Shown here piece after piece: positions 53,521 through 57,565 of a DNA stretch of 64,000 nt (position 1 is its first letter; each line of letters opens with the position of its first letter). The translations under genes were made by a program, and so were the position numbers. The notes under the pieces were generated by a model. The model had not been told where the DNA came from, made no database searches, and saw nothing but the letters and a program-made list of their open reading frames with translations. The DNA lies in contig JAYZEG010000058.1 in assembly GCA_036337435.1 (NCBI GenBank), positions 96,001 to 160,000 on the forward strand, written 5' to 3'. The stretch is from Myxococcota bacterium (lineage in GTDB: Bacteria; Myxococcota_A; Bradymonadia; UBA7976; UBA1532).

Positions 53521-54315
53521 TTAACTTCGGATATCTCGACGTAGATCTTTTCCTATGAGTCGGATGGGCTCACACATTTCCATCAGACGCGAATGGATTC
53601 TTACGCCCACTCGATCGATCAGGTTATCCGACTCACTCCCCTCTGCTTTAGGGAGTACCTCAATTCCATAATTGGTTGTAAACAGTGTGGTTTTCTTAGA
53701 ATTGTAGCGTTTTGTAATCAGTTCATCCAAGACACTTAGTTCCCAGTCTGACCCCCGACCCTTACCGAGTTCATCTATCACCAACAAGGGAACATCAACC
53801 AATGGCTGCATGACGACGTCTGCGTGTCCGCGATCTCCGAAGGTTGCTCGCAAATCAGATAGCAGATGCATAAACTCAATAAATCTGGCTCTAATGCCAC
53901 GACTCAGAATCAGGTATCTCAAAATAGCACATGACAAATAGGTCTTGCCTGTCCCAACCGTACCGTATAGCAAAATGCCCGGGGCACCGGGTTGGTATTC
54001 CCTGACGAACCGCCAAGCCATACGACGGGCATTTGCCATATCAACCGAACCAGAATCTGTCTTAATTTTCGTAAACTCGGCATCATGATATCGGCCTGGA
54101 ATCGATGCCTCATTGTACAATTTCGCTCGTTGACCATAGCGCAGACAGCTGCACTCGATCGCATTTCGATAACCAAATTCATCAGTGTCGTAAATATAGC
54201 CCGAGCCGTCACATGTCGGGCATGGATGCATACACTCACAGACCCGAGAGACCGCAATATGATTGGCTTGATGAACATAAACACCAATTCCATTACATCT
54301 TGGACATTCGGCCAT
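53521..54315 (-). CDS. DnaC/DnaI/IstB-family AAA+ ATPase with two N-terminal Zn-ribbon motifs (putative helicase loader)
   Basis: CPRC..CEC and CPTC..CSC; IPGRY; GTVGTGKT; LVIDELG; FTTN; RIHSRLMEMC. Confidence 0.85.
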   Translation of the reverse strand: MAECPRCNGIGVYVHQANHIAVSRVCECMHPCPTCDGSGYIYDTDEFGYRNAIECSCLRYGQRAKLYNEASIPGRYHDAEFTKIKTDSGSVDMANARRMAWRFVREYQPGAPGILLYGTVGTGKTYLSCAILRYLILSRGIRARFIEFMHLLSDLRATFGDRGHADVVMQPLVDVPLLVIDELGKGRGSDWELSVLDELITKRYNSKKTTLFTTNYGIEVLPKAEGSESDNLIDRVGVRIHSRLMEMCEPIRLIGKDLRRDIRS

Positions 54316-54975
54316 TTACCAGCCACCTCCCATTCTGATCTCCAGCGCGGGTAATCTCACCAACTTACGGACCGAACGCCTGACAAAAGCTCGCTCCGTC
54401 TCGGTTTGTGTCACAGGATCAAGCCGAGGCATTTGGCTGAGCGTGAGCCGCACATCGCTTTCAATCGAGCGTTTTTGTTCCTCACTCATGCGATCCATAC
54501 ACGCCTCAAGAGTTTGGGTCTCTATTAACTCCAGGCTCGCACCCAAGTCGAGTCCTGTGCCCTTATCGTAATTCCGCTGCAGCTCGACCAAATCTGCCCT
54601 AAGCTTGTTGAACACGGGCAGATAGGGACGTGAATCCGCTGCCAAAAGTAAATCATCGATTTGGGCAAGGAAACCATCAAACCCAGCTGTGACTGACTCA
54701 CAATCAAGGTCTGTAGACAGCTTAGAACCCACCCGGCTATCCCGATAGAGTTGTGCTGCTTTATCAACAGACTTAGAGACGAAAGCCAAACTGCTTACGC
54801 GACGATTCGGCGGTACTTCAAATGCCCGCTTTATGCCCTGAATGACCACATCCTTCGGAATTTGGGCTCGATACCAGCGAGCAACCAGGCTGTGGTCTTT
54901 TGGAGACAGCATCAACCCCCGCCCAGTCGCGCGGATGAATGCTGTCGTAATCGCCTCGAGATAGTCCCGATCCAC
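54316..54975 (-). CDS. Hypothetical protein with a DnaD-like N-terminal domain
   Basis: GTG start 5 nt after the gyrB stop; F..ATGRGLMLSPKD..LVARW...IPKDVVIQGIKRAF resembles the DnaD/DnaB_2 pattern. Confidence 0.6.
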   Translation of the reverse strand: MDRDYLEAITTAFIRATGRGLMLSPKDHSLVARWYRAQIPKDVVIQGIKRAFEVPPNRRVSSLAFVSKSVDKAAQLYRDSRVGSKLSTDLDCESVTAGFDGFLAQIDDLLLAADSRPYLPVFNKLRADLVELQRNYDKGTGLDLGASLELIETQTLEACMDRMSEEQKRSIESDVRLTLSQMPRLDPVTQTETERAFVRRSVRKLVRLPALEIRMGGGW

Positions 54976-54979
54976 AACC

Positions 54980-57565
54980 CTACACGTCTAGATTCTTAAC
55001 GGTGAGCGCATTGCGTTCGATAAACGCACGCCTCGGTTCGACGCTATCACCCATCAATACGGTGAACATGCCATCCGCTTCGACGGTGTCGTCGATCCGA
55101 ACTTGCAAAAGTGTGCGGTTCTCAGGGTCCATGGTCGTCTCCCAAAGCTGCTCGGGATTCATCTCACCGAGACCCTTGTATCTCTGGAAATCCATGCCCT
55201 TTCGACCCAATTGGAGAATGGACTCCAAGAGTGCATTGGGCCCTTTGACCTCACGCTCGCTCTCACCAATGCGAATGGTAAAGGTGTTTGTAAAATTGTC
55301 TCCAAGCTGCTCAAAAACTTCTTGAACTCGCTCAGATTGTCGATTGAGCAGCGTGGTCCGATTAATCACGGTACGACGCTCCCCGCCAGCAGCACGAGAC
55401 CGCACGACTAGGCTCCATCCATGGTCTTCTTCGACCTCTGACTCAACAGCGATTTCTTCGGGTCCGGCCGACTCAGGCGACTCCGCATCCAACTGAGCCA
55501 GATCATCATCTGTGGCATCCTCATCTGACCCTGGATCTTCTGGTGCCTCGAACAGGGGCCTGACGGGCTCGAATCGCTCAACGGAGAAGCGCGTCGGTAT
55601 TTCATCCGGATACACATCGTCCATGTAGGTTTTCAACCGCTCAGCGAAGGTATCAACCTTGCCCTTATCGAGAAAATCATCCGGAACAAACATACCGCCC
55701 AAAAGTAACCCTTCGAAAATACGCCAGTCCCCACGCCGCTGGATTTGTTCTAAATCGCCGTACAGCTGACCAAGTTTCGAAATGAAATTCCGCAGATGAT
55801 CGCCTTCGATTAAGGTCCCATTGCCATCGATGATTGCAGCTGACTTCGCCGCACCTTCAATGAGAAACTGCTGCATCGCAGCTTCATTCTTCAAATATCT
55901 GATTTGCTTGCCTTTTTTAGCTCGAAACAGAGGTGGTTGGGCAATGTAGAGATAACCTCGTTCAATGATGCTTGGCATTTGCCGATAGAAGAAAGTCAAC
56001 AAGAGCGTTCGAATATGCGACCCATCGACATCAGCATCCGTCATAATGATGACTTTGTGATATCGGAGCTTCGCAATATCGAAGCTATCAGCCCCTATAC
56101 CTGTTCCAAGAGCCGTGATGAGCGTGATAATTTCCTGACTCGATAGCATTTTATCTAGCCTGGCTTTTTCCACATTCAAGATCTTACCGCGTAGGGGTAA
56201 GATCGCCTGGGTCGCTCGATCTCGTCCCTGTTTCGCTGACCCACCCGCAGAATCACCCTCCACCAGATAGATCTCAGAATTGGCTGGGTCTTTCTCTTGG
56301 CAGTCAGCCAGCTTTCCTGGAAGCGCAGCGGAATCTAAAGCCCCTTTTCTTCGAACAAGTTCACGCGCACGGCGAGCTGCGTCCCGGGCTCGGGCAGCAC
56401 CAATGGCCTTGTTAACCATTGATTTAGATTCATTGGGATGTTCGAGGAGCCAATCGTGCAATTTGATGGCCACTGTGGACTGAACCGCATGCTTGACCTC
56501 GGACGACACCAATTTATCCTTGGTTTGACTGCTAAATTTCGGGTCAGGCACTTTACAAGAAACGACAGCGACCAAACCTTCGCGGATGTCATCGCCGGAC
56601 AAACTATTCTTAAGTCCTTTGGTCAAACCTTCTTTTTGGGCGTATGCATTGACCGTTCGGGTCAAGGCATCTCGAAATCCCGCCAAGTGCGTTCCGCCAT
56701 CTCGATTCCGAATATTATTGGTAAAAGCGGAGATATTTTCTTGGTACGAGTCGTTCCACTGCATGGCAATTTCGACTTCGATATCATCTCTCACTTCAGT
56801 AAAATAAACCGGTGTCTGGTGCAGAATCGTTTTATTTCTATTCAGGTGTTCAACAAACGAGGCAATACCGCCTTCATATTTAAAATCATTACGTTTTCCA
56901 TCGCCACGCTCGTCGATGATCGTAATCGCGACACCCTTGTTCAAAAACGACAATTCTCTCAAACGCTGAGAGAGAATGTCAAAACTGAACTCGTTATTCT
57001 CTGTGAAAATACTTCGGTCCGGCAGGAAGCGAATTTTTGTGCCCGTCTCATCGGTCGCCTCTCCGGCAGCCAATGGCGCATCGGGCTCCCCGATTTGATA
57101 GCTTTGCCGATGGATTTTACCATCGCGATGAATCTCGAGAAGTAGGGAATCTGACAGCGCATTCACGCAGGAAATACCCACACCGTGAAGCCCGCCCGAC
57201 ACCTTGTACGAATTATCATCAAATTTACCACCCGCATGAAGCACGGTCATGATGACCTCTGCGGCACTTCGACCTTCTTCTGCATGCATACCAACCGGGA
57301 TTCCGCGGCCGTTGTCTTCAACGGTACAACCGCCATCGATATGCAAGCGGACTGTCACCGTATCGCAATGGCCAGCTAATGCTTCATCGATAGCATTATC
57401 CACCGCTTCATAAACCAGCTGGTGCAAACCCGTTCCATCGTTCGGATCACCGATATACATACCAGGTCTCTTGCGGACCGCTTCCAGCCCTTTCAGGACC
57501 TTGATACTGTCGGCACTATAGCCATCACCGTCGCCGGCGACTGCGCCTGGATTCACGTCACTCAT
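54980..57565 (-). CDS. gyrB: DNA gyrase subunit B
   Basis: [44 protein letters not shown]; long TOPRIM insertion. Confidence 0.97.

Follow-up and report, generated by a model that had tools for sequence, protein, structure and literature searches.

Helicase loading beyond Escherichia coli and Bacillus is still being worked out. In the current picture, DciA serves most bacterial phyla, and DnaC/DnaI-type loaders have been taken over from phages at the expense of DciA. In Bacillus subtilis, the DnaB/DnaD and DnaI proteins combine a helical adaptor of the DnaB_2 type with an AAA+ loader that carries an N-terminal zinc domain, and dnaB adjoins dnaI within a shared operon. In E. coli, the gene of a primosomal adaptor, dnaT, is located directly 5′ of dnaC. 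Here we analysed a gene pair of the same order in a 64-kb stretch of DNA, referred to below as the window, from contig JAYZEG010000058.1 of a Myxococcota bacterium. In this window, gyrB is followed by the gene of a 219-amino-acid (aa) protein, termed X, and X is followed by the gene of a 264-aa AAA+ protein, termed C. With a probability of roughly 60%, X and C constitute an adaptor-plus-loader module that resides on the chromosome and serves the replicative helicase. The initial annotation of this DNA had proposed such a helicase-loader module, and the proposal is supported by protein family, synteny, inheritance and a predicted X–C interface.

The contact between adaptor and loader has been described for B. 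subtilis, where the tail of DnaB (residues 449–472) is reported to bind the AAA+ domain of DnaI ahead of the Walker A motif, at F131, V134, F145 and L152, as supported by two-hybrid assays, mutants and an AlphaFold 3 model (PMC13326638). According to the survey of Brezellec et al. (2016; PMC5109545), DnaC/DnaI-type loaders were domesticated at least seven times, namely in Enterobacteriales, Aeromonadales, Alteromonadales, Clostridia, Bacilli, Aquificae and Chloroflexi. The survey reports that dciA was always lost upon domestication, gives the Deltaproteobacteria as dciA carriers, and places dciA next to gyrB or recF in many phyla. In Vibrionaceae, phage-derived loaders are reported to arrive with a preprimosomal partner gene, and genomes with both dciA and a new loader are described (PMC11087808). 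No description of the X–C pair was found in the literature searched, most subscription journals lying outside the reach of that search.

Gene order and the loader-type ATPase C

The trio is encoded on the minus strand, with gyrB (54980–57565, 861 aa) as its first gene, followed by X (54316–54975, GTG start) and C (53521–54315). The positions come from the list of open reading frames (ORFs), and gyrB was identified by Pfam matches to DNA_gyraseB (4.3e-59), DNA_gyraseB_C, Toprim and HATPase_c. Both junctions were read from the sequence. The stop codon of gyrB (TAG, 54982–54980) is separated from the GTG of X (54975) by the four bases ggtt, and the stop codon of X (TAA, 54318–54316) abuts the ATG of C (54315) with zero gap; the positions given in the initial annotation for this arrangement were exact. 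A GGAGG site resembling a Shine-Dalgarno sequence (54326–54330, minus strand) is located 10 nt 5′ of the ATG of C, within the codons of the GGGW tail of X. Together with the abutting stop and start codons, this site suggests that translation of C is coupled to that of X. The same bases (54319–54330) encode the strongly conserved X tail MGGGW and form the GGAGG ribosome-binding site of C. As these codons double as a ribosome-binding site, the conservation of the tail may reflect constraint on both the protein and the mRNA. A simple scan of the minus strand gave no promoter-like sites between gyrB, X and C, and one terminator-like hairpin inside C at 53991–53978.

A motif scan located a cluster of three DnaA boxes (61245–61278) just 5′ of dnaA, comprising two perfect copies of TTATCCACA at 61245 (plus strand) and 61258 (minus strand) and a single-mismatch copy at 61270 (minus strand). 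The adjoining dnaA gene (61308–62660, plus strand) matched Pfam Bac_DnaA at 2.5e-69. The cluster is 3.7 kb from the start of gyrB and 6.3–7.7 kb from X and C; the distance first given for the pair was about 6 kb. Across the window, the motif with one mismatch occurred 16 times against 12.3 expected, which is no enrichment, and only the cluster near dnaA stands out.

Protein C was placed in the DnaC/DnaI/IstB clade of AAA+ ATPases by its match to Pfam PF01695 (IstB_IS21), which spans residues 112–219 and scores 47.3 bits where the cut-off is 24.1. It also matched phrog_50, named DnaC-like helicase loader (4.5e-47, residues 4–262). When a profile of 41 members was searched against the PDB, Aquifex DnaC (1.7e-39) and E. 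coli DnaC (3.1e-27) scored above the DnaI-type loaders (1.4e-22 to 1.3e-17) and IstB (1.1e-13), and a search with the single C sequence gave the same rank order. The nearest solved AAA+ domains are those of Aquifex aeolicus DnaC (3ECC/3EC2) and E. coli DnaC; these matches begin at residue 75 and residue 44 of C, respectively, leaving most of the putative zinc region (residues 4–57) uncovered. None of the NCBIfam equivalog cut-offs was reached: C scored 57.3 bits against the DnaC equivalog NF005931 (cut-off 357), 65.4 bits against the DnaI equivalog NF006505 (cut-off 228) and 63.9 bits against the IstB equivalog NF038214, IS21_help_AAA (cut-off 200). Its best NCBIfam score, 118.9 bits against a cut-off of 189, was to PRK08116, a subfamily labelled hypothetical protein. 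Because no equivalog cut-off was reached, C is, by sequence comparison, a distinct branch of the DnaC/DnaI clade and no orthologue of any named loader. The 881 relatives of C found at E ≤ 1e-3 and the 812 family representatives of X indicate that both are real genes.

It could also be argued that C derives from a prophage or serves as the transposition helper IstB of an IS21 element, with X as an unrelated small ORF. IstB shares the Pfam family PF01695, which is named after it, and the AAA+ clade with C, and the score of 63.9 bits against IS21_help_AAA points the same way. However, this score is far under the cut-off of 200, IstB ranks behind both DnaC and DnaI when the profile is run against the PDB, and X is conserved across its 812 cluster representatives. 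The profile scores for DnaC and DnaI exceed that for IstB by a wide margin, which supports the DnaC/DnaI type proposed in the initial annotation.

The AAA+ module of C covers residues 91–259 (53539–54045, minus strand). All of the hallmark motifs first noted were found, namely GTVGTGKT (118–125), IDELG (180–184), TTN (213–215) and SRLMEMC (242–248), as were both CxxC...CxC modules. The motifs hold the Walker A lysine K124, the Walker B residues D181 and E182, the sensor I residue N215 and the S242–R243 box, and G121, G123, K124, T125, D181, E182, N215, S242 and R243 are invariant among 41 relatives. The cysteine modules (residues 4–57, 54145–54306, minus strand) comprise eight cysteines, with C4/C7 and C26/C28 in the first and C32/C35 and C55/C57 in the second, and both CxxC pairs read CxxCxGxG. 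C35 and C55 are invariant and the other six are at least 90% conserved in the same relatives. The region gave a match to Pfam DnaJ_CXXCXGXG (9.5e-5) that is below the cut-off, and no sequence match to PDB chains at E < 0.1; likewise, it has no sequence match to the N-terminal domain of DnaI. The two modules are presumed to bind two zinc ions. With its conserved cysteines at the N-terminus and its AAA+ module behind them, C has a layout analogous to that of DnaI.

Protein X and its predicted contact with C

Homologues of X at 74% and 61% identity share its start, VDRD. While a word-limited search gave only two close relatives, an exhaustive profile search recovered 812 cluster representatives at E ≤ 1e-3, 75 of them also passing E ≤ 1e-10, with typical lengths of 200–240 aa, and all of the relatives listed carry the source name hypothetical protein. 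Two alignments were used, one of three rows (A1) and one of 74 members (A2). The latter revealed two conserved parts separated by a variable helical middle. The N-terminal block of about 85 residues contains Y5, S24, D27, W34, P40, V44 and F52, and the C-terminal part carries the motif LPxLxL, with P209 conserved in at least 90% of the 74 members. The N-terminal motif reported in the initial annotation is present, but three of its spacings were off by one and should read F13-x4-G18, D27-x6-W34 and W34-x5-P40.

The profile evidence on the N-terminal domain is consistent with a loader partner. X matched phrog_7498, named DnaD-like helicase loader, over residues 6–54 (3.8e-4); the same family was matched by 71 of the 74 members (best 6.8e-16), and a second family of that name, phrog_16826, by 35 (best 9.2e-11), the PHROG name being an annotation and not a tested function. 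Among Pfam families, DnaB_2 (PF07261) was the commonest match of the members (9/74 at E ≤ 1, best 3.7e-4), with no such match for X itself. One further family match from the profile search, P0155, which stands outside A2, reached 22.9 bits against the DnaB_2 cut-off of 22 in a separate scan. Residues 1–85 (54721–54975, minus strand) are accordingly described here as a predicted four-helix domain that resembles DnaB_2 and the C-terminal domain of DnaD at the profile level. We conclude from these comparisons that the head of X is probably a divergent domain of the DnaB_2/DDBH2 type. The winged-helix oligomerisation domain DnaD_N/DDBH1 was absent from the Pfam scan of X and from the 25 families listed for the 74 relatives. 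Because this domain was not detected, X is judged to be no orthologue of DnaD; it differs from the Firmicute DnaB and DnaD proteins in having 219 aa and a single N-terminal DnaB_2-like domain.

The AlphaFold model of X is all-helical, with nine helices and a mean predicted local distance difference test (pLDDT) score of 92.8, and a model of residues 1–88 alone reached 91.5. In the BFVD search, ranks 2 and 9 were viral proteins named Replication initiation and membrane attachment, which is the Pfam description of DnaB_2, at a weak E of 0.1–0.6 and template modelling (TM) scores of 0.51–0.54; rank 18, also weak, was the N-terminal domain of the SPP1 loader G39P. The structure rows of the Atlas named DnaB_2 clusters at a TM score of 0.30 for the whole of X, and a cluster with DnaB_2 and DnaD_N at 0.60 over 73 residues of X (within residues 2–80). 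The feature search of the Atlas gave no usable match within named clusters, and the A1 and A2 profiles retrieved only coiled-coil and low-complexity noise from the PDB sequences. Taken as fold evidence, these models are weakly supportive of a DnaB_2-like head.

A different neighbourhood was seen for some relatives of X. Five of 53 matches (P0277, P0278, P0282, P0288 and P0318, about 400 aa each) are fused to, or were called together with, the biotin ligase BirA (PF03099), and in P0245 (489 aa) the X-like part at 287–377 is joined to the type III pantothenate kinase CoaX. Such joined proteins may be genuine, or gene calling may have read through from one neighbouring gene into the next. In either case, the X family of other lineages appears to adjoin birA or coaX and not gyrB.

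The prediction of the X–C complex gave a median score of 0.76 on the interface measure ipSAE (three runs, 0.75–0.77), as compared with 0.00 for the best control. Among reference pairs, 116 of 157 solved complexes and 2 of 215 mismatched pairs attained that mark; because the prediction was run on our own alignments, this calibration applies to it only roughly. The runs agreed in at least 65% of their contacts, and the pLDDT of the partner was at least 81. The predicted interface involves residues 143, 145, 149, 178, 181–186, 189, 192–193, 196–197, 200, 210 and 212–219 of X and residues 91–109, 138–141 and 245–252 of C, in addition to residues 56 and 59. The model therefore supports binding of the conserved C-terminus of X to the AAA+ domain of C, and residues 143–219 of X (54319–54549, minus strand), with the C-terminal helices and the LPxLxL...GGGW tail, are regarded as the predicted loader-binding region on the basis of the complex and of conservation.

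The predicted contact on C is located 15–33 residues before K124, and the helix of C at residues 94–111 aligns with the helix preceding Walker A in the crystal structure of G. kaustophilus DnaI. In DnaI, the Walker A lysine is K174. With this numbering, which is approximate, the B. subtilis contact would presumably lie about 22–43 residues ahead of K174. The modelled X–C contact thus resembles that between the DnaB tail and DnaI, and the Firmicute DnaB–DnaI co-loader pair is, by analogy, a closer counterpart of X–C than DnaD. Because the PDB searches of this analysis gave no structure of a DnaB–DnaI complex, it seems unlikely that the prediction reproduced a complex already known to the predictor.

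Bacillus phage Palmer (gp38–gp39) and an Exiguobacterium phage have annotated gene pairs of the same order, the DnaD-like gene coming first and the DnaC-like gene second, and a B. cereus plasmid carries a gene with a phage-type C-terminal domain followed by an ATPase gene. Modules of PHROG 7498 or 16826 with PHROG 50, as in phage Palmer, share with X–C both the gene order and the two PHROG families. Unlike these modules, X–C is chromosomal, stands in a housekeeping context and appears to be vertically inherited; moreover, X has no phage match below E = 0.5, that value being the single match in a tblastn search of 50,697 phage records.

Genomic context, inheritance and the question of DciA

The C profile was searched against one genome per GTDB species. 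At least 525 relatives were confirmed, and the best 80 loci were analysed, with X, C and gyrB called by hidden Markov models (HMMs) built from the alignments. Most of the 80 loci come from Myxococcota metagenome-assembled genomes (MAGs) labelled Myxococcales, Bradymonadia, Nannocystaceae and Anaeromyxobacter, and a minority are labelled SAR324, Lambdaproteobacteria or Dadabacteria, with a few other bin labels. X was found immediately 5′ of C in 49 of the 80 loci, including the complete gyrB–X–C trio in 37 and X–C without a detected gyrB in 12, two of which are cut by a contig end. In 14 loci, dnaA, rnpA, yidD, yidC and jag precede gyrB–X–C as in the window, and dnaA lies within 8 kb in 14/80. 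The genes 5′ of gyrB vary by clade (jag, LysM, GGDEF, LarC), and the trio remains intact. Convergent recR was found 3′ of C in six loci, on the opposite strand; these (L025, L029, L033, L035, L051 and L053) belong to the Anaeromyxobacter-type clade. In L029, a MazE/MazF (PemK) pair at 3353–4182, about 2.3 kb 3′ of X–C–recR, represents the sole mobile-type or toxin–antitoxin genes in the scanned loci.

The remaining 31 loci have C without an adjoining X, three of them with less than 400 bp of sequence upstream, and a relaxed X HMM found no X-like ORF in any of the 31 at E < 0.1. Because these loci have C without an X-like ORF, the loader does not, as judged from the sequences, always need X next to it. 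Two clades make up the C-only loci. The Bradymonadales-type clade has 7TM-HD or HEAT-repeat genes 5′ of C, with gidA and uvrD close by, and the SAR324/Lambdaproteobacteria-type clade has a divergent R3H gene; where the gene 5′ of C was not X, those scanned were 7TM-HD, HEAT, gidA, R3H, recF-like and similar genes. In the Bradymonadales-type clade, a HEAT-repeat protein of about 190 aa occupies the place of X 5′ of C in L044, L046, L059, L067, L068 and L069, and is found downstream in L034. It matches Pfam HEAT_2 in its C-terminal half and shows no match in its N-terminal 120 aa.

A quick IQ-TREE phylogeny was built from 81 members of the C family and seven outgroups (E. coli DnaC, IstB, four phage or plasmid loaders and a Leptospira homologue; no Firmicute DnaI or Aquifex DnaC was included), with the Shimodaira–Hasegawa-like approximate likelihood ratio test (SH-aLRT) as its only support measure and with long outgroup branches. 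The tree separated the C family from the outgroups at an SH-aLRT of 93, and E. coli DnaC, outside the family, formed a group with a protein of a Pseudomonas phage. When the three context states were mapped onto the tree, eight changes were counted as compared with 40.6 for shuffled labels, and none of 200 shuffles was as low. Because the context states cluster by clade on the C tree, the pattern fits a resident, vertically inherited gene with occasional rearrangement. The pair is chromosomal, conserved and inherited by clade. The conserved context and clade-congruent distribution by which Brezellec et al. (2016) recognise a resident loader are both seen for the C family, congruence being read here from the C tree rather than a species tree, yet the family is not counted in that survey (PMC5109545).

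C matched 216 phage records, at no more than 31% identity. Full-length phage or plasmid relatives, zinc region included, were confined to Leptospira elements (28% identity, 5e-24), namely the LE1-like phage record KF114877.1 (L082, 2465–3331) and plasmid NZ_CP091952.1. The C family HMM matched these proteins at 5.2e-40 over positions 4–260. Their annotation reads IstB-like ATP-binding protein. The DNA that precedes them is unannotated for about 1 kb and contains no X-like ORF, and an integrase-core gene is near.

The label and the neighbour of these Leptospira relatives could be taken in favour of the IstB or prophage origin considered above. Against it, no transposase, IstA, rve or phage structural gene was found among the neighbours scanned at the 80 loci, and the genuine IstB fetched for comparison stands directly after istA. 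All annotated neighbours of X and C at the scanned loci are housekeeping or metabolic genes. Unlike C, IstB has a partner transposase, and its branch in the tree, an outgroup branch apart from the C family, is very long (8.42). As far as the data go, context and scores refute the IstB or prophage reading, which we consider extremely improbable. In the window itself, the 60 ORFs scanned yielded no domain of a transposase, integrase or phage protein, as had been stated at the outset.

DciA, whose gene usually lies by gyrB or recF, is a presumed functional analogue and is not homologous to X or C, neither of which matched PF05258 (DUF721). Supplementary file 2 of the survey gives one dciA and at least one PF01695 protein for 8/8 Myxococcales genomes among those listed, and exactly one of each for Anaeromyxobacter dehalogenans 2CP-C (PMC5109545). 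Because an A. dehalogenans-labelled MAG (L050) carries gyrB–X–C and 2CP-C has just one PF01695 protein, that protein is probably the orthologue of C.

These listings bear on the possibility that X–C replaced DciA and became the only chromosomal loader of the lineage through independent domestication of a phage initiator–loader pair, as the initial annotation had implied. PF05258 was not found at E ≤ 1 among the ORFs of the 64-kb window, nor in 163 further ORFs around the 80 loci (57 genes 5′ of gyrB or X at 21 loci and 106 small ORFs). X–C also occupies the gyrB neighbourhood, the place of dciA in many phyla (PMC5109545), and phage modules of DnaD-like and DnaC-like genes show the same gene order. 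However, the absence of dciA from a 64-kb window says nothing of the remaining genome, and the scanned ORFs likewise covered only the surroundings of the loci. The eight listed Myxococcales, 2CP-C among them, each combine dciA with PF01695 proteins in the survey's table, the best phage match to C is only 28% identical, and the seven tree outgroups are too few to demonstrate a separate domestication. Replacement of DciA is therefore doubtful and probably wrong, and we regard the whole scenario as unlikely.

As the survey lists dciA for cultured Myxococcales, X–C probably works beside DciA and not in its place. The C family seems to depart from the published mutual exclusion of dciA and dna[CI], and, if dciA does coexist, the rule has an exception. 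A broader proposal, that X–C is a second, vertically inherited helicase-loading system coexisting with DciA in Myxococcota and allied lineages, is tentative and falls somewhat short of even odds. The allied lineages would be SAR324, Dadabacteria-labelled MAGs and possibly Acidobacteriota, the group best represented among the X relatives of the Atlas.

X–C might also be a domesticated phage replication module that has lost helicase loading and now regulates or sequesters the helicase or gyrase, or acts against foreign DNA. In line with this, a loader, DciA, seems to coexist with the pair, loader-like AAA+ proteins recur in phages, as the 216 matched records illustrate, the tight linkage to gyrB could point to a gyrase-related task, and C has a weak PADLOC match to DrmD (8e-6). 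That match covers only the generic P-loop region 113–215, and X has no PADLOC match, so the defence variant was set aside. Furthermore, the AAA+ catalytic residues of C are invariant, X and C stand among housekeeping genes outside defence islands, and the pair is inherited by clade across several classes. A module that lost its loading activity is thus improbable as well.

The remainder of the window is ordinary origin-proximal chromosome, as judged from gene content by domain scans. The order gidB, bactofilin, parA, parB, ATP synthase operon and gliding-type ABC transporter leads up to C–X–gyrB–jag–yidC–yidD–rnpA on the minus strand, with dnaA on the plus strand. The classical dnaA–dnaN–recF–gyrB operon is split up (57760–63999): the genes after dnaA encode an ABC transporter of the iron-siderophore type (Peripla_BP_2, FecCD), gyrB is found on the opposite strand behind rnpA–yidD–yidC–jag, and neither dnaN nor recF is present in the window. 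GyrB itself is long and has a very acidic stretch at about residues 660–720, in a region that weakly matches GyrB_insert (7.6e-4, below cut-off). The bactofilin gene adjoins parA–parB and gidB (40354–42654), an arrangement known from myxobacterial chromosome-segregation systems. An operon of the BatA/MoxR/DUF58/VWA aerotolerance type was found at 10546–19118 (plus strand), comprising DUF4175, Peptidase_MA_2-TPR, AAA_3 MoxR, DUF58 and BatA-VWA genes.

A candidate adaptor-plus-loader module

Several results weigh against a module of adaptor X and loader C. X matched neither Pfam nor NCBIfam, and C reached no NCBIfam equivalog cut-off. Foldseek returned nothing at E ≤ 0.001 for the full or N-terminal X models against the PDB, and nothing at that level in BFVD; the best PDB matches of full X were helical bundles of no meaning, with no DnaD structure among the matches listed. 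The X family HMM found nothing at E ≤ 10 in phage Palmer, its DnaD-like protein included, or among the Leptospira phage ORFs, and an hhalign comparison of A2 with Palmer gp38 reached only E = 0.082. The likeness to DnaD/DnaB_2 claimed initially therefore stands at the profile level (71 of 74 members on PHROG 7498) and not in the PDB fold search. In addition, the 31 C-only loci lack X, the BirA and CoaX partners of some X relatives offer no obvious replication context, no helicase gene is present in the 64-kb window, and the cultured Myxococcales listed in the survey already have a loader in DciA (PMC5109545).

The adaptor-plus-loader module nevertheless remains the best explanation of the locus as a whole. 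In this model, gyrB, X and C would be co-transcribed and translationally coupled as part of an origin-proximal cluster. C would act like DnaI or DnaC, its AAA+ module binding ATP and single-stranded DNA and acting on a DnaB-type helicase ring, and its two-zinc N-terminal module may be the helicase-binding part by analogy with the zinc domain of DnaI. X would act in the manner of DnaB (and DnaD), the co-loader of Firmicutes. With its N-terminal DnaB_2-like domain it may contact DNA or an initiator (DnaA or PriA), and its C-terminal helices and tail would clamp the AAA+ segment of C just before Walker A, bringing the loader–helicase complex to the loading site. The module would operate at oriC, in replication restart, or in both. 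Zinc binding, helicase binding, the binding of DNA or DnaA by X and the cellular task are inferred. In comparison with the Firmicute system, the host is a diderm myxococcotan, the genes follow gyrB, and dciA probably coexists.

If X–C is indeed a second loading system that coexists with DciA, X would represent a new adaptor family outside the Firmicutes, with a DnaB_2-like head and a loader-binding tail, which connects a DnaI-like loader bearing a zinc module with an initiator or a restart factor. The module model also suggests a likely function for the X family, whose sequence clusters number over 800 and are labelled hypothetical protein, and the Firmicute-type adaptor logic, with the DnaB tail on the DnaI AAA+ domain, would, on the predicted complex, extend to a diderm phylum. 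With coexistence, the rule that dciA is lost once a DnaC/DnaI-type loader becomes resident would fail. A loader and an adaptor beside gyrB in dozens of Myxococcota genomes, from lineages listed with dciA, suggest that the two loading strategies may coexist. DciA and X–C could then split origin firing and fork restart between them, and, because both strategies may be present together, such a division of labour would be directly testable in these bacteria.

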